Assembly (NCBI GenBank): GCA_031362565.1
Contig: JANLSU010000030.1
Location: forward strand, 1-30,085
Direction of reading: 5' to 3'
Source of the DNA: a bacterium
Lineage (GTDB): Bacteria; Krumholzibacteriota; Krumholzibacteriia; G020349025
Length of the DNA stretch: 30,085 nucleotides
Each line of letters opens with the position of its first letter. Position 1 is the stretch's first letter. The notes beneath the pieces were generated by a model. It was not told where the DNA came from. It was given only the letters and a program-made list of their open reading frames with translations, and did not search any database. A program made the position numbers and the translations under genes. Positions 18,009-29,425 of the stretch are shown here, one piece after another.

Positions 18009-18085
18009 GGTGGGCGTAGCTCAATTGGCGGAGCACTTGGTTGTGGTCCAAGGGGTTGTGGGTTCAAGTCCCATCGTCCACCCCA
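18009..18085 (+). tRNA. tRNA-His (GTG) with G-1 and encoded CCA
   Basis: G-1 then acceptor GTGGGCG/CGTCCAC, discriminator C, CCA; D stem GCTC/GAGC; anticodon arm CTTGG-TTGTGGT-CCAAG; T arm GTGGG-TTCAAGT-CCCAT. Confidence 0.97.
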
Positions 18086-18090
18086 TTTTG

Positions 18091-18124
18091 AAAAGGCCGC
18101 CGGAGACCCCTCCGGCGGCTTTTT
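18091..18124. terminator. Bidirectional intrinsic terminator between tRNA-His and the convergent CDS
   Basis: AAAAG-GCCGCCGGAG-accc-CTCCGGCGGC-TTTTT. Confidence 0.88.
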
Positions 18125-18163
18125 GTTGCGGGGCGAGATCGTTGTCCGCACCGGCGCTACGAG

Positions 18164-20203
18164 CTAGCGAACCAGCACGACGCGCCGGCTTACTGCTTGA
18201 TCTCCGCCAGTAAGGCGGCACACGTACACTCCCGATGCGGACGGTCTGCCGGCAGAATCGCGCCCATCCCAACGCGCCACATGCGCGCCGGGCGTAACCT
18301 CACCAGCGAACAATGTCCGGATGTGCCGCCCCGCGACATCGAGGATCTCGAGCGATGCGCTTCCGAAGCGCTCCACGGTGTACTGGATTGTAGTACTCGG
18401 GTTGAACGGATTGGGCACGTTTTGCTGCAACGAGATCCGCTGCCGATGTACCTCGGGAGCCACATCCGAAGGAAGCACGCCGCGGATCTGGATATCGTCG
18501 ATGTACCAGCCCAGGTTTTCGGTGGGACCGCACGTTCCACATCGGGCCGTGGCGAAGTAGAACGCCAACCGAATGGTTGAGTTCGCAAAGGACGCAAGGT
18601 CTTCCGAGCAGTATGGCGTCCAGCCGGCGGAATCGCCGACGAATGTCTGTGAGTTCAGGTCCTGCCAAGCCCCCCAAACGCCATTCTGAAGGGTCGACAC
18701 CTGCACGCGAGCGACATCATCGCCTTCGATCAAGTACCAATGCCAGAAGCACAGGCGCAGGTCGGCGACTGCAGCGCCCAGGTGGATCGATGGGCTGATG
18801 AGGCGCGATACGAGGTTGTTATAGTAGTTTCCGCCGAGAATCGTTCCGGCACAAAGGCTGTCCGAATGCGCCCTCACCTGCGGGCTCGGTCGACCGATTT
18901 CCCACTGCCCACCTTCAACGCTCCAACCTCCCTGGCCACCGGAGAAGGTTTCGTAATTCGGGAATTCCAGCGCCGTCCACGGTGGGGTTCGCACAATCTC
19001 CAAGTCGTCGATGTACCAACCGGCGTCTACGGTTGGGCCACACGTTCCGCATTGGCTAGTCGCGAAGCGGAACGCCACGCGGACCGTGGAATCGGCGTAG
19101 GTCGAGATATCCAGGACGGGTCTCGACCAACTCGGGTTCCAGCCAGAATAACCGTCTTGACCAGTGTCGACACTCGCGTTCGTACCACGTAAGGGAAGGA
19201 AGGGGCCCCAGCCGCTGGGGCGCAAGGTCGAGATCTCGACCGTCCCGACATCGTCCGCCCAGACGCGGAACCAGTGCCAGAACCGCAACTGCAGAGATTC
19301 ACAGGCTTCGATCGCCGGTAACTGGTAGGGTGGACTGATCAGGCGAGAGTCGAGTGCGTTGAAGTAGTTCCCGCTCAACACGGTCCCGGCGCACGCCGGA
19401 CCGGAATGCCCGGAATTGGGACCTGAAGTGGCGGCGCCGATCTCCCACTGGCCCTGCGTTACCGACCAACCGCCCCACCCGTTCTCGAACGATTCAACGA
19501 CCGGACCCGCCGGCGGCGCCGACATGCGCACCACGGATACATCGTCGATATACCACCCGAGATCCTCCGTCGGACCGCACGTCCCGCAGCGTCCCGACTG
19601 GAACCGGAACCCGACGCGGACCGTGGAATCCGCGTAAGAAGACAAATCCAGCGACGCCTGCGTCCAAATCGGACTGAAGCTTCCATAGGTTGCGCTTGCT
19701 CCACGCACCGCGAGCCAGGGCCCCCAGCCTGTCGGCCGGAGAGTCCGAATCTCAATCGATGCCGTGTCGTCAAGCCAGATTCGGTACCAGTGCCAGAAGC
19801 GGAGCTGCAAGCTTTCGCACCCGCTGAGCGGCGGGAGCGCAATCGAAGCGGAACTGAGCCGGGTATTGGCGCCATTCGGGTAATTGCCGTTCAGCACGGT
19901 TGCGGCGCACCAGAAGCCGGAGTGGGCTGCCGGCTGCGGGGTCGGCTGCCCCAATTGCCACACACCCTGGTCGATCGACCATCCACCGCAGCCGCCCAGA
20001 CCCGACTCGAAGTCGCATTGAAAAACTGTGCTACCCACGGCCGAGCACGGAGCGTACCCCACGCTGCCCCGACTACCGCACGACGCCAGGCCCGGCTCGA
20101 GCGGGCTGATCCTCACATCGGACTCGCCGTATGCACGGCTGAGACCCAGGGTAAGAACCGACGCAAGTCGAATGAACTGTATAGCCAAGCCTGCGCATCG
20201 CAT
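18164..20203 (-). CDS. Secreted protein with three tandem cleaved-adhesin/MAM-like (immune inhibitor A-type) beta-sandwich domains and a C-terminal FlgD-Ig-like domain
   Basis: AAGGAG RBS before ATG 20203; signal-like N-terminus. Three repeats of FE.G.GGWS...WQ/EIG.P...HSG...L.GNY...L.S...L.FWHW...GWYIDD. C-terminal LQQNVPNPFNPSTTI...WDGRDSAG...SGVY. Confidence 0.85.
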   Translation of the reverse strand: MRCAGLAIQFIRLASVLTLGLSRAYGESDVRISPLEPGLASCGSRGSVGYAPCSAVGSTVFQCDFESGLGGCGGWSIDQGVWQLGQPTPQPAAHSGFWCAATVLNGNYPNGANTRLSSASIALPPLSGCESLQLRFWHWYRIWLDDTASIEIRTLRPTGWGPWLAVRGASATYGSFSPIWTQASLDLSSYADSTVRVGFRFQSGRCGTCGPTEDLGWYIDDVSVVRMSAPPAGPVVESFENGWGGWSVTQGQWEIGAATSGPNSGHSGPACAGTVLSGNYFNALDSRLISPPYQLPAIEACESLQLRFWHWFRVWADDVGTVEISTLRPSGWGPFLPLRGTNASVDTGQDGYSGWNPSWSRPVLDISTYADSTVRVAFRFATSQCGTCGPTVDAGWYIDDLEIVRTPPWTALEFPNYETFSGGQGGWSVEGGQWEIGRPSPQVRAHSDSLCAGTILGGNYYNNLVSRLISPSIHLGAAVADLRLCFWHWYLIEGDDVARVQVSTLQNGVWGAWQDLNSQTFVGDSAGWTPYCSEDLASFANSTIRLAFYFATARCGTCGPTENLGWYIDDIQIRGVLPSDVAPEVHRQRISLQQNVPNPFNPSTTIQYTVERFGSASLEILDVAGRHIRTLFAGEVTPGAHVARWDGRDSAGRPSASGVYVCRLTGGDQAVSRRVVLVR

Positions 20204-20561
20204 GGAACGGCTCCTTCTCGCAAACCGGCGAACGGCGAAACGGCCTGCCACGGCCTTTCGGGCGCTGGATCGTACGATGCGTAGGATTTGTCTGGTGGGG
20301 CGGGTCATGAACTTTCTCCGTTTCTCGAACCGCGTGCTGGAGCGTTGTCGAATTTGTCTAACGCGGGCCCCGGGTGGGTGACCTGCGACCTCCACGAAAT
20401 CGTTTATTCCGGGGCGGTTCTCTGCATTGAAACTGATGCTGGCACTATAGGTCATCACGCTGCGGGCTACAACCCCAACGCCGAAATCGAAGTGTTCATC
20501 GGTCTTCCGCATGCGGATTTGTCCCACCGCGATGAGGCCGATAACAGCAACGCCCCAGCTG

Positions 20562-20993
20562 TCAGAAGCCGGCCGAGATTCCCACGAGCACAGATTTCGC
20601 ATTTGGATCGACCCCGACGGCGATGGGCGAGCGCACCGGTTGCCCATGCGTCGTTCCGAGATTCGGAGAGAAGAGCGGCGCGAACGCACTCGGGATCTGT
20701 GGGAGAAGCAGCGAGCCGGAGACGCTGTGCGAACTCGAACTGTCTGTGGGGACCGCCGCGGCTTTTGGGGTGTCCGACTGATGCCTCGAGTGCACAGCCA
20801 GGGCCACCACGGTGACCGCAGCCGCCGTTCCGAGGCCGATGAGCAGGATCGTGGTTCCGGATATCGTCCCGGGCAGGTCCTCCGACTGATCGTGCCATGC
20901 GGCCGCCGCCGGGCGTGGCATGCTCAGTGTCCAGAACGCGAGGCCGGCGAGTGAGACAGCGACGAGCCTGTGGTTGCGCGTGCGATGCAGCAT
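20562..20993 (-). CDS. Small exported/membrane protein of unknown function
   Basis: GGAGG RBS; signal peptide ending PAAA; second hydrophobic helix; C-terminal amphipathic strand ending in F (LVGISAGF). Confidence 0.75.
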   Translation of the reverse strand: MLHRTRNHRLVAVSLAGLAFWTLSMPRPAAAAWHDQSEDLPGTISGTTILLIGLGTAAAVTVVALAVHSRHQSDTPKAAAVPTDSSSSHSVSGSLLLPQIPSAFAPLFSPNLGTTHGQPVRSPIAVGVDPNAKSVLVGISAGF

Positions 20994-21073
20994 CGAATTT
21001 CCTCCTGGATCGTAGCGTGCGCGACCGCCATCCCGGCCTATCTGGCCTCGGTGGCCGCGGCGTGTGCCTGTCG

Positions 21074-21106
21074 CGACGAGTGTCCTTCGACCCGGCAATG
21101 TGTGAC
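21074..21106 (-). promoter_or_regulatory. Putative ECF-sigma promoter, copy 1
   Basis: GTCACA-CATTGCCGGGTCGAA-GGACACTCGTCG, about 80 nt upstream of ATG 20993; 24/33 identical to the copy at 26204-26236. Confidence 0.6.
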
Positions 21107-21206
21107 CGCCCAAGTGGCCGCTGGTCAGGCCCACCGGCGACGCGGGCCTTGTCGTTCAGGGTCCGGGGTCGATAAGCTCGTCAGGTTCCCAACCCATTTG
21201 AGGACG

Positions 21207-24200
21207 ATGACGCCGTCTGCATTCGAAATGCACCGCGCTCGCCGCCGGTCCCGCCGGCTGTTCGCGGCCGCGCTCGTGGTCGGCACGAGCCTCATGGGTT
21301 GCCGTGTCTTGCCCGCGGCACGGCCCGCCGCCGAGACGTCCGCGACGCTCGCGGATTCACTCCAGACTCTGCGGCGTGCCGGAAACCACGACGCCGCACT
21401 GCGCGTCGCGAACCAACAGCTGGCGCGATTGCGCGCCGACGCGAGCGCCAAGCCCTGGCAGATTCGGGAGGCCGAAAGCGACCGCGAGACAATGCGGTTC
21501 GCGTGCACACTCCCGCAGCGCACCCGACGCGAACTGGCCGCCGCGGATTCCCTAGAAGCACCGTTGGAGAACTTCCTGAACCGAAAAGCGATCGCGGCAG
21601 GCGAGAGCGCCGCGCGTCGCCAGCTGGAGATTCGCGCGCGCGTACTCGGCCAACGGCATCCCGATGTAGCCGCAAGCCAGCATCATCTGGCTGCCTTCCT
21701 CGCGGCCAAAGCGGAGTACGCGGCTGCCGACAGCCTGGTACGAGAAGCGATTCGCGTTACCGAAGAGACTCTAGGCAACAACCACCCCAGGGTTGCATCC
21801 ATCATGCGCACCCGTGCCGAGATTTGCGTCGAGGCGGGAAAAATCGCCACAGCGGATTCGCTCGTACGCCGGGCTCTGAACCTGCACCGCGACGCCTTAA
21901 GTTCGGACGACGCGGAAGTGCTGCTCGACTTCGGGGTCCTCGGGGCAGTGCTCGCTTACGAGGGTGAGTACTTTGCGGCCGAAGTCATCCTGCGTCGCGT
22001 CGCTGCGCTCGGACCGGCCCGGTTGCCCCACAATCAGCGCGCCTTACTCGAGGGGGTCAGCAATCTCGGGTCGGTGGTGGACATGCGTGGGGACCACGCA
22101 GCCGCGGAACCTTTGTATCGGCAGGCCACGGATTTGTCACGCACGCTCTTCGGAGAGGAGAGCTACGACTATGCCTTCAACCTCGCCAACCTCGCGATCT
22201 TGTCGTCCGAACTGGGGATGTATGCGACCGGCGAAAGTCTGTTAGCGCGCGTCATCCCTATCTACGAAAAGACGCTTCCTGCTGGCCATCCGGACATCGC
22301 GATGATGCTACAGAATCAAGCTTTGCTGATGCAGAAGCGTGGCCATTTCTCCGACGCGGAAGTGACCTACCGACGCACGCTCGCCATGGCATCCGCGGCC
22401 GGCGGGCGCGACGGTCTGAACGCGGCGCTAATCCTCAACAACCTGGGCTTATGCCTTGAAGAAGGCGGGCAAGCAGCGGCTGCCGACAGCGCCATGGCTG
22501 CAGCTCTGGCGATCCGGCGCAGGCGCCTCGGCAAGAACCATCCGGACCTGATTCTAACGCTCACGAACATGGCGATGCTGTGCAAGCAGAACGGTGCTCT
22601 CGACCGCGCTGAGCAGCTGCTCGAGGAGGCGGGACGCGCCTTCGAGACAGCGCGACTGCGCGCCGCGAGCGCTTCCGACCGGGCGTTCTTCGATCTCTCT
22701 CCGTACGAGGATCTCGCGGTTGTTCAGCTCTGGCGCGGGGAAAGGGCCGGGGCCTGGCCGAACGTCGAGAAGGCACTCGCACGCTCGCTCGGTGACCTTC
22801 TCGTCGATGCGGGCGCCAGGCCGCAGAATCCCGGCGAACTCGCGCGCGAAGACTCGCTCCTGAGCGGCATGAGCCTGGTGGAGCAGCAGATCGCGGCGCG
22901 TGCCGGCACTGCGGACGAGGACGGAAGCGACAGGCGCACCCATGGGCGCGACCGCGAGCGCCTGCAGCTCCGGATTGCCGAGGCGTCCCTGAGCGCGTTC
23001 CAGCAGCAGATGGCCACGAAGTATTCGCTGCGCTGTGGAGCCACGTTCGATCTGGCGCGCGTCCAAGCGGCGCTTGGTCCGAAGCGGGCCCTGCTCGGGT
23101 GGATCGAAGACCCGCACCCGGCCGCGGATTCCATCGGACGCTCGTGGGCGTATGTCATTCGCGACCACGGTGTGGTGCATTGGGCAGAGCTCCCCAAGCG
23201 CGCGCGCGGGCGGGATGTCGAATGGGAGCGCGTGTACCGAGATGCAATTCTACTGCACGGCGCGACCGGTCCTCGGAGCCGTATGAGCGAGGCGGCTCGC
23301 ACACTATACGAGCAACGGGTACGTCCCGTCGAAAGCGCGCTCGAGGACATCGAGGAATTGCTGGTCGTGCCATCGCGCGGCATGCTCGGATTGCCAGTGG
23401 AGGCGCTCGTCGATTCCGGCGGACGGCTGTTCGGAGAGCGGGTCCGCGTGTGCTACAGCCCATCCGCTTCTGTAGCGACCTGGCTCACGGAGGGCACACG
23501 ACGGCGCCACGCTCAGTCGCGCCCGATCACGGCATTGCTCGTCGGTGACCCGGCCTTCGATGCGGCACAAGCAGAACAGATCGCGCGTGAAACCCGCGCT
23601 GCGATGTCGCGGCCACCCCGTGCGGAGCAATCTACGGCCGAGCCACTCGCAGCAGTAACAGCGAGCGCGCTACGCTCTGGCGCTGCCCGAGGCGACGGGC
23701 CGGCGGTGTTCCCGCGTCTTGTCTTCTCACGCCTCGAGCTCGAGCGCTGCAAGCAACTGCTAGGCGATCGTGCTGTTGAGCTCTTGGGGCGCGACGCCAG
23801 CGAGCCCGCGATGGTGGCTCTCGCCGAGTCGATACATGCATTTCGCATCCTTCACTTCTCGACGCACGCTGTCATCGACGACGCGAGGCCCGAGAACTGC
23901 GCCCTCGTGCTATCGCAAGTGGACCTTCCAGACCGCTTCGCGGCCGCAGAGCGCCACGAGCGGATCTACGATGGAAGATGGACCGCGCAAGAAATTTTGC
24001 AGGAATGGCAGCTCGACGCCGACCTCGTCGTGCTGAGCGCGTGCGAAACCGCTCTCGGGCGCAAGGCTGTGGGAGAAGGCTACATCGGATTCTCACAAAC
24101 ATTGCTGCAAAGCGGTGCGCACCACCTGATCCTCAGCCTGTGGGAAGTTGACGACCATTCGACGGCGTTGCTCATGGGGTCGTTCTACAACCACCTGCTG

Positions 24201-24395
24201 GGTGACGTCGCGGAGTCGACCGCCGCGGGCAGCGCTGCCGCCCCAATTCGATCGGACCGGCTCGACAGTCGGCGCATCTCCCGCGCGTTACAGGCAGCAC
24301 AGCGCGACGTGCGCGAATACGGTGCAGGCGATCGACATCCCTACGCGCACCCATGGTACTGGGCAGGATTCGTGCTCATCGGGGCCGGCGACTAG
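21207..24395 (+). CDS. Lipoprotein TPR-CHAT (caspase-like cysteine protease)
   Basis: Basic N-region, hydrophobic core and LMGC lipobox; kinesin-light-chain-type TPRs (HPDVA, GHPDIA, NHPDLI); CHAT motifs LVVPS, LPVEAL, YSPSAS, LHFSTHA (His), VVLSACETALG (Cys), LSLWEVDD, HPWYWAGFVLIG. Start may be 21207 or 21228. Confidence 0.93.
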   Translation: MTPSAFEMHRARRRSRRLFAAALVVGTSLMGCRVLPAARPAAETSATLADSLQTLRRAGNHDAALRVANQQLARLRADASAKPWQIREAESDRETMRFACTLPQRTRRELAAADSLEAPLENFLNRKAIAAGESAARRQLEIRARVLGQRHPDVAASQHHLAAFLAAKAEYAAADSLVREAIRVTEETLGNNHPRVASIMRTRAEICVEAGKIATADSLVRRALNLHRDALSSDDAEVLLDFGVLGAVLAYEGEYFAAEVILRRVAALGPARLPHNQRALLEGVSNLGSVVDMRGDHAAAEPLYRQATDLSRTLFGEESYDYAFNLANLAILSSELGMYATGESLLARVIPIYEKTLPAGHPDIAMMLQNQALLMQKRGHFSDAEVTYRRTLAMASAAGGRDGLNAALILNNLGLCLEEGGQAAAADSAMAAALAIRRRRLGKNHPDLILTLTNMAMLCKQNGALDRAEQLLEEAGRAFETARLRAASASDRAFFDLSPYEDLAVVQLWRGERAGAWPNVEKALARSLGDLLVDAGARPQNPGELAREDSLLSGMSLVEQQIAARAGTADEDGSDRRTHGRDRERLQLRIAEASLSAFQQQMATKYSLRCGATFDLARVQAALGPKRALLGWIEDPHPAADSIGRSWAYVIRDHGVVHWAELPKRARGRDVEWERVYRDAILLHGATGPRSRMSEAARTLYEQRVRPVESALEDIEELLVVPSRGMLGLPVEALVDSGGRLFGERVRVCYSPSASVATWLTEGTRRRHAQSRPITALLVGDPAFDAAQAEQIARETRAAMSRPPRAEQSTAEPLAAVTASALRSGAARGDGPAVFPRLVFSRLELERCKQLLGDRAVELLGRDASEPAMVALAESIHAFRILHFSTHAVIDDARPENCALVLSQVDLPDRFAAAERHERIYDGRWTAQEILQEWQLDADLVVLSACETALGRKAVGEGYIGFSQTLLQSGAHHLILSLWEVDDHSTALLMGSFYNHLLGDVAESTAAGSAAAPIRSDRLDSRRISRALQAAQRDVREYGAGDRHPYAHPWYWAGFVLIGAGD

Positions 24396-25327
24396 GGCGC
24401 GCCATACTCCAAGTCGAAGACTTTCTCGTCCGCGGTCCCAGGAGTGTCCAGGCGCAGGATGCGAACGTGATACGTACCTTCCGAGAGCGCCACCGGTGTG
24501 CGCACAATGAGCATGATCTCGCCCCGCATCACATCCGCGACGGTGGCCGGAGCGCGCAGCAGCAAGGCGCCGGCCGGCGCGTACACCTCAATTGTGGCCG
24601 CTGTACCCGAGGGCCATTCGGCTGGCAACTCGACGCGGAGTACGATCGCGTGGGCTGAGCTCGGTACATGCACCACGTTGCCGCGGCCGCGTGTCAGCGC
24701 CGGTGCAACCCAGGGCAGCACTCCATCTGCCGCCGGATCGGGCGCGATCGGCGCGGAGCGGGGGTGCACGAGGAGAATCCCGGTAGCCGTGACCGCCCAC
24801 GCCGCGACCGCCCAATTCCACGATTTGAGCCGCTTCGGGCTCCAAGACGGCAGAGTGAACCATCCACGGTTCGTGTGTCGCGATGATCCGGGTGCTGACA
24901 ACGGTGGCTCGTCAGTGCGTGTCGAGGGACGCGACGCCGATGCGTCGGCGAGAGGCGTTGTGGCCACGGCGGCGCTGCGTTCCGACATTGTATTCAGCCC
25001 GGCATCAAAAGACGCTTCGGAGGCGTGCGCGTCAACGTGCTCGCGGCACTCGGGACAATGGCCGAGATGCTGATCAACCAGGTCACGGAGCTTGCCACGC
25101 AGGGTTTTCCGACGCGTCGCCCAATCAGAAAGGATCGAATCGGGAATGTGAACGTCGTCTTCGCGACCGGCAGTGTCGAACATGACGAAACTCTGCCACA
25201 GCTCATGACACTTGCCACACTGGACCAGATGCTCTTGCAGGCGGCCCTCGTCGGAATCTTCGAGGACGCCGATGTGGCGCTCGAAGAGGCGAGCGACGAA
25301 CCAGGAGTGCTCGGTCTGCGGTAGCAT
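24392..25327 (-). CDS. Membrane anti-sigma factor with two ZAS (zf-HC2) zinc fingers
   Basis: HLVQCGKC and HLGHCPEC motifs, one TM helix (WAVAAWAVTATGILLV), extracytoplasmic beta domain; directly downstream of the sigma gene with a GGAGG RBS. Confidence 0.85.
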   Translation of the reverse strand: MLPQTEHSWFVARLFERHIGVLEDSDEGRLQEHLVQCGKCHELWQSFVMFDTAGREDDVHIPDSILSDWATRRKTLRGKLRDLVDQHLGHCPECREHVDAHASEASFDAGLNTMSERSAAVATTPLADASASRPSTRTDEPPLSAPGSSRHTNRGWFTLPSWSPKRLKSWNWAVAAWAVTATGILLVHPRSAPIAPDPAADGVLPWVAPALTRGRGNVVHVPSSAHAIVLRVELPAEWPSGTAATIEVYAPAGALLLRAPATVADVMRGEIMLIVRTPVALSEGTYHVRILRLDTPGTADEKVFDLEYGAP

Positions 25328-25345
25328 GGTCCCTCCGGCTCGCGT

Positions 25346-25921
25346 CTAGAGATCGCCGAGAATAAGCGGTAGCGGGAAATCCGGATCGCCTGCAAGCTCG
25401 GCACGCAGCCGTCGCTGCAGGCGCGACCAGCGCTTGCGAGCCGCCGCCGGTTGAATGCCGAGTTCAGTAGCGGTCTCTTCGTGTGATGCACCTCGGCGCC
25501 TTGCGTCGAGCAGCGGTAGTTCCGCCGCGTCGATCCGGCGCACCGTCTCACGCACCATGAACATTGAGAGTTCAAATGCCTCGCAGAACTCGGAAGCCCG
25601 GCGTTCCGGCTCGGGCACACTCAGGACGTCATCGTCGATCGCCTCGAAGATCCGGCGCTCCCGCGCCCGGCGTTTGATGTGTGAGTATGCGATCTTGTGC
25701 GCGATGTCAGTAACCAGACCCTCGGGGTTTGCAACCACTTCCCGCCGCATGCAGTGCCAAACGCGCCGCAAGCACTCGCTGACCAGATCCTCGATTTTCG
25801 GGTCCGCGGCGTCGCCGAGCTTGGCAATCACACGCCGGTGAGCGAGGTGCCGAAGCGCGTCCCATCGCGGGTCATCGGGACCATCCGTCGTCACGACAGA
25901 CCACTTCCCATGCAAGCCCAT
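25346..25921 (-). CDS. ECF-type RNA polymerase sigma factor
   Basis: Region 2 (IEDLVSECLRRVW...NPEGLVTDIAHKIAYSHIKRR) and region 4 HTH (GASHEETATELGIQPAAARKRWSRLQRRLR). Start uncertain: ATG 25921 or GTG 25894. Confidence 0.88.
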   Translation of the reverse strand: MGLHGKWSVVTTDGPDDPRWDALRHLAHRRVIAKLGDAADPKIEDLVSECLRRVWHCMRREVVANPEGLVTDIAHKIAYSHIKRRARERRIFEAIDDDVLSVPEPERRASEFCEAFELSMFMVRETVRRIDAAELPLLDARRRGASHEETATELGIQPAAARKRWSRLQRRLRAELAGDPDFPLPLILGDL

Positions 25922-26203
25922 CAAGGGGAGCAATAGGTGGCGGGGCGGATTTCGGAACCGCAGGCATGGGCGGTCAGCCCGCGAGGGAGTCTTCCGCGCC
26001 AAGCAAACCTGCCGCCGCGGATCGGGGGCACGGCCGCCGTCGACTCCAGTACCGGTACGCGTCACAGGACGAACATGCGCGCAAGGTAGCACCGGAGTCC
26101 GCGCGGCCGCAAGGCGAAGGGCCGGGGTTGTGGAGGTCGCAAACATCGAGGGGCACCATTCGAGCAAAGGCTTCGAATCATGTGCGACCAGCGCTGGCGC
26201 ACA

Positions 26204-26236
26204 CGACGATTGTCCCGGGACCTCGGAAGATGTGAC
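26204..26236 (-). promoter_or_regulatory. Putative ECF-sigma (autoregulatory) promoter, copy 2
   Basis: GTCACA-TCTTCCGAGGTCCCG-GGACAATCGTCG upstream of the sigma/anti-sigma operon, same spacing as copy 1. Confidence 0.6.
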
Positions 26237-26424: not shown

Positions 26425-27081
26425 CTACCCCCCGCACTCGAATCGCTTCGTTGCCGCCTCGAAACGGTGGCGCGCGGCTTCGATGTCGAATGGCCGTTCG
26501 CGGAGCGTCTCCGCGTCCCATTCACTGCGCGGCTTGGCGAAGAAATCGCCGCCATAGATGTGAATGGCGCCGGTGAGCCGCTCGATTGGATTGGTCACGG
26601 AATGAATCGCGGTCTCCGGGAGCGGAAACACGTCCTTCTCCGATAGCGACGCGGCGCTGGCCGCCTCGACGACCGGACCCTGGCGCTCCCAAGTGATGTT
26701 GTCCTCGCGCCCTGAATAGATACCGATCGTCGCCCACATGTTGTGGTTGTGCGGCAGGAGCAACATGAGCGGCGCCCAGATGACATTGAGAATCGTCAAG
26801 TCGTCGGCGCGATACAACGTATGAATCCCAGCTTGCATCGGTTCACCGAGTCCGTGGAGCACTGCCGCAGGTTCCGACACCGCGCGCGCGAGGACTTCCT
26901 GAACCGACTTTTGGCTGTCCGCGTCTTGGCGCGCCCGTTTCACATCGTCGAGGAATCGATCGACGTCGAACCGCGAGTTCATGGCAACACTTCCTCTCGC
27001 CTGTGCTGGAGCCAATGCAGCGCCTGCTGCCAGCAGACCTGCGGTGCCGATCAGAAACTCGCGCTGTGACAGATCGATCAT
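26425..27081 (-). CDS. Cysteine dioxygenase-like cupin (thiol dioxygenase family), possibly with a Tat-like leader
   Basis: PHNH, IHSVTNP and AIHIYG motifs. GAGGT RBS before MIDLSQREFL; an alternative start lies at 26982. Confidence 0.8.
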   Translation of the reverse strand: MIDLSQREFLIGTAGLLAAGAALAPAQARGSVAMNSRFDVDRFLDDVKRARQDADSQKSVQEVLARAVSEPAAVLHGLGEPMQAGIHTLYRADDLTILNVIWAPLMLLLPHNHNMWATIGIYSGREDNITWERQGPVVEAASAASLSEKDVFPLPETAIHSVTNPIERLTGAIHIYGGDFFAKPRSEWDAETLRERPFDIEAARHRFEAATKRFECGG

Positions 27082-27296: not shown

Positions 27297-27713
27297 ATGA
27301 AGCGACGCAGAGCGGCCTCTCGTTCGAAAGTCCTGTTGATCGGGACACTGACGGCTCTCGCCACGGTCACCGTGCTGGCCGTAACACGACCGCACGCCAA
27401 CGCCGGTGAACATGCCACGGCGGCGCAAGCCGGGATGCGCGCCGTCATCGACCCGGAGACCGGCCAACTCGGCACGTCATCGGGCCTGCCGGCGCCGACG
27501 GCCGAGGAAAAGGCGCTCCTCCAACCGGCGCAGGCCCAGCCCCGCCAGGTTGTCCTGCCGGACGGTTCCGTGATGGTCGAATTGAACGGCACGGGCCAAG
27601 AATTTGCCGTGATGCACATCGACGCCGCCGGCAAACGCAGCGTGCAATGCGTGCAGGATGTCGGCAAGGCGCTGCAGACTCCGCCTCCCGCGGTCACGCC
27701 GGAGGAACGGTAA
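27297..27713 (+). CDS. Small secreted protein, post-PEP-CTERM-1-like
   Basis: Signal peptide; GMRAVIDPETGQL and LPDGSVMVEL motifs; its end carries the RBS of the next gene. Confidence 0.7.
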   Translation: MKRRRAASRSKVLLIGTLTALATVTVLAVTRPHANAGEHATAAQAGMRAVIDPETGQLGTSSGLPAPTAEEKALLQPAQAQPRQVVLPDGSVMVELNGTGQEFAVMHIDAAGKRSVQCVQDVGKALQTPPPAVTPEER

Positions 27714-27715
27714 TC

Positions 27716-29425
27716 ATGAACTTCTTCAACTTCGTTCGTTCGCGCGCTACGCTGCTGCTCCTGCTCGGAGCGTCGATGGCTGCGGGATCCCGCACCGCAG
27801 ACGCCGCCACCATTGTCATCGTCAACAACGACGGCGCCGGCGAAGGATTCAACGATCCCACGCCGCGGGCGGCCGTACCCGGTAACCCGGGCGTTACACT
27901 CGGCCAGCAGCGGCTCAATGTCTTCCAGGCCGCCGCGAACATTTGGGGCGGCATCCTGACCAGCAGCGTCACTATTACAGTGCGGGCGCAGTTCGACCCA
28001 CTGACTTGCGCCGCGTCGAGCGCCGTACTCGGCAGCGCCGGTCCCACGACGATCCACCGCGACTTTCCGGGTGTACCGCTCGCTGGACACTGGTACCACC
28101 AGGCACTCGCGAACAAACTGACCGGGTCGGATCAATCGGCAGCAAATCCCGATATCAACGCGACCTTCAACTCCAACATCGACGCCGGGTGCTTCGGCCC
28201 CGGCCTGGTGTGGTACTACGGCACGGACGGGAACGAGGGCGCGAACATCGAACTGCTCCCCGTCGTTCTGCACGAGTTGGGACACGGCCTGGGTTTCAGC
28301 ACGACAACGAACGGTGCCAACGGGGCGTTCAATAGCTCGTTCCCGGGTGTCTGGGATCACTTCCTGATGGACAACACCAACGGACTCCACTGGGATCAAA
28401 TGACGCCGGCGCAACGTGTCGCGTCTGCGATCGCCCTCGACCACTTGGTCTGGGACGGACCCTGGGGCATCGCCGAAGCGACCACGCTCGCCTTCCGCGC
28501 CAAGATGGTGATCAACACGCCGGCCGGCATCGCCGGCCAGTACCAAGCGCAAGCCGCCTCGTTCGGTGCGGCGCTCACGCTCGCGGGAGTGACGGATGAC
28601 GTCGTACTCGCGACCGATGGGACGGCGCCGGTCAACGATATCTGCGAACCGATCACCAACGCGGCGGCGATTGCCGGCAAGTTCGCGCTCGTCGATCGCG
28701 GCATTTGCTCGTTCGTGGCGAAGGCTTTGGCGGTACAGGCGGCGGGCGCGACCGGCCTGATCGTCGTCAACAACGTCGCCAGCGGATTGCCGGGGATGGG
28801 TGGTGTCGATCCTTCGATCACGATCCCCTGCATCGGCATCTCACAGGCCGACGGCAATGCGATCAAAGCCAATCTGGGGTCCGGCGTCACCGTGACGATG
28901 GGGCTCAACTCGGCGCTGAGAGCCGGCGCCGACGCCAGTGGCCGGCCGCTCATGTACTCGCCGAACCCATTCGCGGCCGGTTCGTCGGTCTCGCACTGGG
29001 ACATCAGCCTGGCACCGAACGCGCTCATGGAACCGGCGATCAACGCCGACCTTCACAACACGATCGATCTCGCACATGGGCTCTTCGTCGACATCGGGTG
29101 GTTCCGGGACGCGACGGACGCGGGCCCGGACGAAATCGCCGCGTCGCGGGCGATCACGATGGAGGCCCCGGTCCCGAACCCGGCCACGAGCAGTACATCC
29201 GTGGCATTCCGGATTGGTACGGCAGGCCGCGTCAAGCTCACCATCACCGACGTCAGCGGCCACACGGTTCGCCGGCTGCACGACGGCTTCTTGACCGCCG
29301 GCGGCCACCAGCACAACTGGGATGGCCGAACGGAACGTGGCGGGATGGCGCCCGCCGGCGTCTACTTCATCCGCCTGCAGACGTCCGCTGGGGCGAGGAC
29401 CCAGCGCGTCACATTCGTGCGCTGA
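27716..29425 (+). CDS. Secreted PA-domain zinc metallopeptidase with C-terminal FlgD-Ig-like domain
   Basis: Signal peptide; HELGHGLGF; PA domain (LVDRGICSFVAKALAVQAAGA); GSSVSHWD...LMEP; PNP...WDGR...AGVYFIRL. Confidence 0.9.
   Translation: MNFFNFVRSRATLLLLLGASMAAGSRTADAATIVIVNNDGAGEGFNDPTPRAAVPGNPGVTLGQQRLNVFQAAANIWGGILTSSVTITVRAQFDPLTCAASSAVLGSAGPTTIHRDFPGVPLAGHWYHQALANKLTGSDQSAANPDINATFNSNIDAGCFGPGLVWYYGTDGNEGANIELLPVVLHELGHGLGFSTTTNGANGAFNSSFPGVWDHFLMDNTNGLHWDQMTPAQRVASAIALDHLVWDGPWGIAEATTLAFRAKMVINTPAGIAGQYQAQAASFGAALTLAGVTDDVVLATDGTAPVNDICEPITNAAAIAGKFALVDRGICSFVAKALAVQAAGATGLIVVNNVASGLPGMGGVDPSITIPCIGISQADGNAIKANLGSGVTVTMGLNSALRAGADASGRPLMYSPNPFAAGSSVSHWDISLAPNALMEPAINADLHNTIDLAHGLFVDIGWFRDATDAGPDEIAASRAITMEAPVPNPATSSTSVAFRIGTAGRVKLTITDVSGHTVRRLHDGFLTAGGHQHNWDGRTERGGMAPAGVYFIRLQTSAGARTQRVTFVR

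Follow-up and report, generated by a model that had tools for sequence, protein, structure and literature searches.

Could a caspase-like protease that is exported and encoded apart from its presumed substrate release a sigma factor from an anti-sigma factor bound to the membrane? The question is raised by a locus of a Krumholzibacteriota bacterium (GenBank assembly GCA_031362565.1, contig JANLSU010000030.1), in which a gene for a protease with tetratricopeptide repeats and a CHAT domain (TPR-CHAT) converges on a gene pair for a sigma factor of the extracytoplasmic function (ECF) type and a zinc-binding anti-sigma factor (ZAS). The window, that is, the whole stretch of DNA analysed, is the entire 30,085-nt contig; its source genome (G000) comprises 5.4 Mb on 133 contigs and is 100% complete. 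The three central genes are:

21207..24395, + strand: predicted exported TPR-CHAT (caspase/separase-like) protease of 1062 amino acids (aa), with a signal peptide, a KLC-like TPR array and the CHAT domain (Pfam, AlphaFold2 (AF2), fold matches)
25346..25921, - strand: divergent ECF sigma factor of 191 aa (Pfam, relatives)
24392..25327, - strand: single-pass anti-sigma factor of 311 aa, with tandem zinc (ZAS) domains, a transmembrane (TM) helix, a disordered linker and an immunoglobulin (Ig)-like outer domain

In the reading that we favour, with a probability of roughly 55%, the separate exported CHAT protein would be the site-1 enzyme of this switch: it would cut the anti-sigma factor after Arg213, an M50 peptidase would follow up, and the sigma factor would activate itself and genes for exported proteins. 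The locus is a real, conserved and apparently undescribed variant, a split arrangement of sigma factor, anti-sigma factor and exported CHAT; no published example was found in a search that left subscription journals mostly uncovered, and later ECF groups may describe such contexts.

All five open reading frames (ORFs) of the module, the three above and two further genes for exported proteins described below, are present in the window. The first-pass annotation, made from the DNA letters, had reported a TPR-CHAT protease with an intact His/Cys dyad whose stop codon overlaps that of the anti-sigma gene, and Pfam matches, alignments and coordinates bear this out: the protease ORF matches CHAT (E 1e-51) as well as TPR_12/TPR_10, and the two stop codons overlap at 24392-24395. 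Position 21207 is the likely start of the protease because the extension upstream of it lacks codon-position bias. The AF2 model of residues 199-1062 has a predicted local distance difference test score (pLDDT) of 91.5, and its fold matches are Csx29 (top match, 8eey, E 9e-14), DdvA and separase; by sequence, the solved structure that the CHAT profile matches best is DdvA (E 3e-6). The best named relatives are Krumholzibacteriota, Latescibacteria and Eisenbacteria records, and a single-protein locus search with the window CHAT gave no match.

CHAT genes occur in 154 of the 181 genomes of the phylum, with 552 matches in total. From the 150 matches listed, 99 new loci were fetched, favouring long contigs, and eight were dropped for short flanks, leaving 91. 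The conserved linkage that the first-pass annotation had proposed to survey is present: a sigma gene lies within 2.5 kb of CHAT at 48 of these 91 loci (35 of 60 genomes), compared with 6% of random positions in G000, counts that are descriptive since kin are not independent. Among the 48, the gene after the sigma factor encodes a TM protein in 38 cases (26 with CxxC), a kinase in five, the CHAT protein itself in two and nothing recognisable in three, and the CHAT and sigma genes stand on the same strand (30), divergently (15) or convergently (3). In a second set mostly outside the phylum, 26 of the 51 loci with enough flank (out of 77) are linked; two more loci, duplicates of ones already in hand, were left uncounted. 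Four loci were at first taken for fusions like DdvA; this was rejected, as they hold CHATs directly after the sigma factor, three of the four with a signal-like N-terminus and none with a zinc motif.

Within G000 there are nine CHAT genes, seven of which have an ECF sigma gene within 2 kb, so the module in the window is not unique. The sigma-linked ones come with a zinc TM anti-sigma factor (five) or a TM Ser/Thr kinase (two). The eight CHATs outside the window (contigs C14, C43, C66, C85, C93, C104, C130 and C131) all have signal-like N-termini; four stand with sigma and anti-sigma factors, two with sigma factor and TM kinase and two without a sigma gene. Related sigma or anti-sigma-like genes without an adjacent CHAT are found at C78:19831 and C46:23424-24787 and are possible targets in trans.

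The ECF sigma factor on the minus strand was likewise called correctly. It matches Sigma70_r2 (E 0.002), scores 29 bits with TIGR02937, which is under the cut-off, and is 27-30% identical to two relatives, whose alignment places its start near 25921. A profile of three such sequences identified 13 copies of this subfamily in 11 of 208 genomes. Each of the 13 is followed by a tandem-zinc membrane anti-sigma factor (12 could be aligned) and seven have an adjacent CHAT gene (the window, L063, L086, L263, L264, L266 and L269); five have none, and one contig ends inside the anti-sigma gene. The convergent layout of the window is repeated in L266 and L269, with an identical 4-nt stop overlap in L266.

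The anti-sigma factor (zf-HC2, E 1e-5) contains four elements of interest:

25046..25309, - strand: two zinc motifs, H7/H33/C37/C40 and H60/H87/C91/C94 (subfamily alignment)
24767..24823, - strand: predicted TM helix, residues 169-187 (hydropathy)
24689..24691, - strand: Arg213 (ALT-R-G), candidate P1 residue of the site-1 cut (conservation, disorder)
24395..24676, - strand: seven-stranded Ig-like beta-sandwich, predicted outer domain (AF2)

The description of a single-pass ZAS protein thus stands as to the one TM segment, which is weak in the window (Kyte-Doolittle hydropathy 1.31) and clearly hydrophobic in relatives, but not as to a single zinc motif: there are two, and all eight ligands are invariant or present in at least 90% of 12 subfamily members. 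The outer part comprises 124 aa with an Ig-like fold in the AF2 model, for which a fold search gave just generic Ig-like matches (best Z 8.3, root-mean-square deviation 3.0, 92 residues aligned). A single-protein homolog search with the anti-sigma factor returned the query alone.

The catalytic residues and the signal peptide of the protease are located as follows:

23865..23867, + strand: catalytic His887, invariant in alignments and aligned with the ATHG motif of DdvA
24042..24044, + strand: catalytic Cys946 (LSAC), invariant and aligned with the LAC/GAC motif of DdvA and Csx29
21207..21302, + strand: signal peptide with a basic n-region carrying SRRLF, an h-region and the imperfect lipobox LMG-C32 (sequence)

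The His887-Cys946 dyad is invariant across all 111 aligned relatives. We take the SRRLF stretch to be like a twin-arginine translocation (Tat) signal, and TatC is encoded in G000. The lipobox noted earlier (LMGC at 21291, with Cys32 as the lipobox Cys) is present but imperfect, and just five of the 91 related CHATs have one, whereas a hydrophobic signal-like stretch was detected in 86 of the 91 by a heuristic that also marks 19 of 119 sigma ORFs. To judge by these sequences, CHAT export is conserved and lipidation is not. The protease and the C-terminus of the anti-sigma factor are predicted to lie on the same, outer side of the membrane, as the first-pass annotation had supposed.

The candidate cut site was chosen by its conservation. 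Arg213 is invariant in 27 of 27 aligned sequences and in 88 of 88 hits of a short profile that itself favours Arg, and it lies in a disordered stretch (pLDDT <50) of the predicted periplasmic linker. When the outer domains of 89 CHAT-linked anti-sigma factors and kinases were clustered, the clusters proved to be unrelated folds, and a linker Arg whose next residue is Gly, Ser, Ala or Asp nonetheless persists in 22 of 22 proteins of the Ig type, 89% of 27 of the TPR type and five of seven of a third class. In another class, which we take to be DUF4384-like, a linker Arg is not a majority column before the domain. The CHAT-linked kinases (L011, L013, L027, L074, L087, L121 and L126) carry an LR[GA][IV]-like motif after the outer domain instead of before it. 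As a control, 50 zf-HC2 proteins (40 from 16 relatives and 10 from G000) were filtered for a TM helix and at least 90 residues beyond it, which left 31 proteins (8 CHAT-linked and 23 unlinked). The expression [LVIMTFQ]R[GS] is found in all eight of these held-out CHAT-linked anti-sigma factors and in nine of the 23 unlinked ones (Fisher p 0.003).

A second line of evidence comes from promoters. Two sites in the window resemble each other:

26204..26236, - strand: GTCACA-N15-GGACA-N-TCGTCG, a predicted promoter for autoregulation, 315 nt ahead of the sigma start (motif, matrix from outside genomes)
21074..21106, - strand: second copy, 113 nt before the gene that starts at 20993 (motif comparison)

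The two sites are identical at 24 of 33 bases, which was equalled or beaten by nine of 1500 random stretches; the pattern was derived from these two sites, so their own match to it is no test. The shorter form GTCAC[AG]-N16-GAC lies within 450 nt of eight of the 13 subfamily sigma genes, including six of the 11 outside the defining set (chance 0.003 each), and a matrix built from other genomes only ranks the 26236 site first in the window (16.6). Genome G082, with three sigma copies, has 27 of its 38 sites within 117 kb around those copies, where 0.36 would be expected; the reversed motif, as control, gave 15 hits genome-wide. In relatives, 41 of 42 sites read CGAC, whereas both sites of the window read GGACA, which fits one diverged sigma factor reading both. 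The sigma autoregulation postulated in the first-pass annotation is thus backed by a motif conserved in relatives, and the promoter GTCACA-N16-GAC of this sigma subfamily, as predicted from these comparisons, is new in this analysis. It is subfamily-specific: no promoter shared by all CHAT-linked sigma genes emerged (matches in 3 to 9 of 102 upstream regions, near the level of shuffled sequence), nor did a blind repeat search within 69 loci reveal any clear sharing of promoters (medians 28.6 vs 27.9). The leader between the predicted promoter and the sigma start is unusually long at about 280 nt (25922-26203, - strand), the distance from motif to start in relatives being 58-412 nt.

The genes that the sigma factor may serve are the two remaining ORFs of the module:

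20562..20993, - strand: 143-aa protein, exported or in the membrane and without a known family, with a signal peptide, a hydrophobic segment and a C-terminal Phe
18164..20203, - strand: 679-aa secreted protein with three MAM/InhA-like repeats and a FlgD-Ig C-terminal sorting-type domain (Pfam)

Both have good ribosome-binding sites and signal-like N-termini. The 143-aa gene is a predicted direct output by virtue of the site at 21106; the motif was not found before the protease gene or directly upstream of the 679-aa gene, which is separated from the 143-aa gene by 358 nt with a weak terminator-like hairpin (20569-20552) after the latter. Of the two-gene output operon proposed earlier, one half is therefore supported, and the 679-aa gene is a possible output. 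The arrangement recurs in relatives: in L264 and L266 a second motif copy points towards a divergently oriented secreted-protein gene that ends in a FlgD-Ig domain, and in L263 such a copy stands ahead of a small gene of exported type and then a FlgD-Ig gene, as in the window. Across G000 as a whole the short motif shows no enrichment (28 sites vs 27 in the control), so the regulon seems small. The 143-aa protein has no sequence relatives among 245 candidates, a single-protein homolog search returned the query alone, and look-alike Atlas clusters, all unnamed, were found at 0.95, 0.92 and 0.90. The 679-aa gene has three DNA repeats spaced 510 and 537 nt apart.

The genes behind the sites in G082 mostly have signal-like N-termini, as judged by eye, and include lipoprotein-like proteins, two M48 peptidases, a caspase-domain protein and a CsgG-like protein. 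The 27 motifs around the three sigma copies fall into two islands, C4:178000-265200 and C9:38000-67600 (L270-L276, L281). The C4 region is rich in genes for RNA repair and signalling (two RtcB proteins, an RNA ligase, Thg1, RlaP, NADAR, FHA, kinases, PP2C and an M48 pair), and the C9 region encodes the caspase-domain protein, the CsgG-like protein and a cREC-domain protein; together they look like a conflict or damage-response regulon.

How does the module relate to known systems? The first-pass annotation had compared it with Craspase, but its nearest precedent is the Myxococcus xanthus pair DdvA/DdvS. In DdvA, one polypeptide joins a zinc anti-sigma factor to a periplasmic TPR-CHAT, and self-cleavage as the site-1 step has been proposed, not demonstrated; the idea of a periplasmic CHAT as site-1 protease was left open, with validation said to need the signal first (PMC11506125). 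Both systems combine an ECF sigma factor with a single-pass membrane anti-sigma factor bearing a cytoplasmic zinc domain (PMC11506125; PDB 8rot, 8rw5) and an extracytoplasmic TPR-CHAT with a His-Cys dyad, although export in the window is predicted from the signal sequence, and for both the proposal includes a cut of the site-1 kind, in the linker beyond the membrane. They differ in that the TPR-CHAT of the window is a separate gene on the opposite strand, in its two zinc motifs and small Ig-like outer domain, and in that DdvS drives CBASS and CRISPR genes whereas the predicted targets in the window are exported proteins. The window module is thus a split, two-gene counterpart that would work alike but is not a member, because its protease is unfused and its regulon is not CBASS-CRISPR.

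With Craspase (type III-E: Csx29, Csx30 and CASP-sigma; PMC10028731, PMC9729208) the module shares a TPR-CHAT that cuts a separate inhibitor of a sigma factor, if the proposed cut occurs, and sigma motifs in its own locus. Craspase, however, is cytoplasmic, is triggered by RNA through Cas7-11, acts on an inhibitor that is soluble and has Met or Leu at the residue before the cut. In the window, the protease has a signal peptide, the inhibitor has a TM helix and zinc motifs, the two proteins are expected to encounter each other beyond the inner membrane, and Arg is the candidate P1 residue. The CRISPR-independence claimed earlier is consistent with our searches: no cas genes were found among the 20 window proteins scanned and no cas1 in G000, Cas7-11 itself not having been searched for, and none of eight window proteins matches PADLOC.

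DegS/RseA/RseP (summarised in PMC11506125 and PMC10028731) is similar in its separate site-1 protease, single-pass anti-sigma factor and M50 site-2 protease; in the window, the enzyme cutting at site 1 would instead be a cysteine protease of clan CD that carries a TPR sensor, not a PDZ serine protease. Among ECF groups (supplement of PMC7826278), ECF54 sigma factors lie near CHAT-TPR genes, with a suggested role in regulation or response, but are confined to Actinobacteria, lack an anti-sigma factor, have subtilase and carboxypeptidase-regulatory neighbours and use the promoter GTATCAG/CTCC; the window has an anti-sigma factor and a different motif. ECF41 has the -35 element TGTCACA, equal to that of the window sigma factor, but its -10 element is CGTC and a SnoaL-like extension is fused to it, whereas the window sigma factor ends after region 4 without such an extension and has GAC after 16 nt.

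If our preferred reading is right, the switch would work as follows. At rest, the tandem zinc domains would keep the sigma factor at the inner membrane, as suggested by knowledge of the ZAS family and by the fixed pairing of the two genes. The TPR-CHAT protein would be exported and, lacking the sigma factor's promoter, would probably be made independently of the switch as a standing sensor. An outer signal would align the His-Cys dyad, the protease would cut the anti-sigma factor after Arg213, a position proposed from conservation alone, and the Ig-like domain would be shed. An RseP-type site-2 protease and cytoplasmic proteases would then complete removal of the anti-sigma factor; truncated DdvA is degraded by an RseP-type site-2 step (PMC11506125), and M50 peptidase genes are present in G000. 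The freed sigma factor would transcribe its own operon and the 143-aa gene from GTCACA-N16-GAC, perhaps with read-through into the 679-aa gene, and the response would remodel the cell surface or the secretome.

There is also a broader proposition, which we hold tentatively and at somewhat below even odds: exported TPR-CHATs may be a widespread and so far undescribed class of site-1 proteases that read one short Arg-Gly/Ser tag on interchangeable membrane regulators, namely anti-sigma factors whose outer domains are TPR, Ig-like or of another kind, and probably also Ser/Thr kinases, by means of an S1 pocket unlike that of separase.

A number of observations weigh against cleavage by the exported CHAT after Arg213. 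The expression [LVIMTFQ]R[GS] was picked after the data had been seen and the motif test is modest; a matrix test of the linker motif gave p 0.03 and cross-fold tests gave p 0.04 and 0.34, the last from a matrix trained on the Ig class, which does not separate the TPR class from controls. Arg213 itself has a matrix score of 4.7, below the control median of 5.2, and it is kept in at least 11 of 12 aligned subfamily members although five of the 13 copies stand without an adjacent CHAT. On the side of the outputs, the 21106 site scores 12.0 with the matrix from outside genomes, beneath 86 sites genome-wide at 13 or more, and in a blind locus-wide search it was the best match yet fell below the null (28.8 vs 30.0).

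Moreover, 43 of the 91 CHATs have no sigma gene within 2.5 kb, and two of the nine in G000 lie beside secreted-protein genes only. Together with the five subfamily sigma pairs that lack an adjacent CHAT, this would suit an enzyme that processes or matures exported proteins or acts on foreign ones and that travels with the sigma pair as part of one surface programme, the anti-sigma factor being left intact or falling to a housekeeping site-1 protease. We regard this as unlikely. The protease gene does not carry the sigma factor's promoter and hence is not an obvious output, and the linker Arg tracks CHAT linkage across unrelated folds. Nor are secreted-protein neighbours enriched (within 5 kb at 52 of the 91 loci, 57%, vs 47% at random in G000), so that by themselves they are no evidence for output either.

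The substrate pocket poses a further difficulty for cleavage after Arg. Separase binds the P1 Arg with Asp2151, to which Lys670 of Csx29 corresponds (PMC9729208), and Ala987 of the window protease aligns with this position, albeit indirectly, by sequence profile and via Lys670; the separase-type Arg pocket is therefore not kept. The Asp of a conserved W-x-V-x-D motif (167 of 184 CHATs) was considered as the separase Arg-binding Asp and dropped, since D2151 maps four residues later. In Arg-specific clan CD enzymes an S1 acid is described at helix 1 (PMC4626109), and the invariant Glu844, at the start of the first CHAT-core helix, may by analogy be its equivalent; Glu844 and Asp983 would be alternative candidate acids for binding Arg. 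The seven CHATs that neighbour this sigma subfamily all have an R[GS] motif in the loop just before that helix. Such a loop and the missing pocket residue would both be in keeping with a protease that does not cut but binds the Arg motif and protects the anti-sigma factor, until a signal or self-cleavage in its own R[GS] loop lifts the shield. RseB shields RseA. A further point in favour is that the TPR-CHAT part of DdvA blocks its cleavage by RseP (PMC11506125). Against a shield stand the invariant dyad and the fact that the anti-sigma factor already possesses a folded outer domain that can keep site-2 cleavage in check; we consider such a role quite unlikely.

Finally, the seven CHATs linked to the subfamily fall into two clades, the window with L086 and the other five (approximately unbiased test p 1e-5, 31 selected rows), which implies that partners were exchanged and that the pairing is not strictly co-inherited. 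The window CHAT is nearest to proteins that mostly have TPR-type anti-sigma factors or none, no exact peptide is common to the protease loop and the window anti-sigma factor, and the module adjoins a tRNA-His gene. The general scheme might then hold while the pairing is non-exclusive or non-cognate, in a mosaic locus at a tRNA hot spot where any of the nine CHATs could cut a short Arg site. This seems to us improbable, given that in L086, too, a sigma factor of this type stands with a CHAT of the window's clade (46% identical), that both window genes are intact with stops overlapping as in L266, and that an attachment-site duplicate of the tRNA end was not seen. On balance, the first-pass interpretation of the locus as a protease/anti-sigma/sigma module is plausible and supported in part, namely for linkage, topology, autoregulation and control of the 20993 gene, and not for cleavage, a signal bound by the TPRs or control of the 20203 gene.

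The surroundings of the module add some observations. The tRNA-His(GTG) gene with a terminator-like hairpin (18010-18125) adjoins the 3' end of the 679-aa gene, and because of this position the module may occupy a tRNA integration hot spot; GC content dips slightly, to 0.61-0.64, at 18-21 kb. This tRNA is the sole Rfam match in the window, and an ARAGORN tRNA-Gly call at 27772-27868, within a protein gene and without Rfam support, was treated as spurious. Upstream of the sigma gene, 26425-27081 (- strand) encodes a protein without a Pfam match whose RREFL-like leader is presumably a twin-arginine motif; a partial motif TGTCACA at 27070 (score 12.0), inside the 5' end of this gene, is probably there by chance. 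Beyond it, 27297-29425 (+ strand) holds a small gene of exported type and, after it, a 592-aa ORF with HExxH, a PA domain and a FlgD-Ig end, likely a secreted metalloprotease; no sigma promoter motif scoring >12 was found for these genes. The FlgD-Ig C-terminal sorting-type domain occurs in about 220 ORFs of G000, a very large secreted repertoire.

Since the split system separates enzyme from substrate, it makes the unproven cleavage step of the DdvA switch directly testable, and the locus supplies a candidate scissile bond (Arg213), catalytic residues to mutate and a defined promoter for a reporter. If cleavage is true, it would give a role and natural substrates to a large bacterial family of caspase-like proteins known mainly from CRISPR work. 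If the broader proposition on site-1 proteases also holds, a single bacterium would run several parallel, caspase-gated circuits of surface signalling, and the outputs of the sigma subfamily described here would be marked by GTCACA-N16-GAC promoters.

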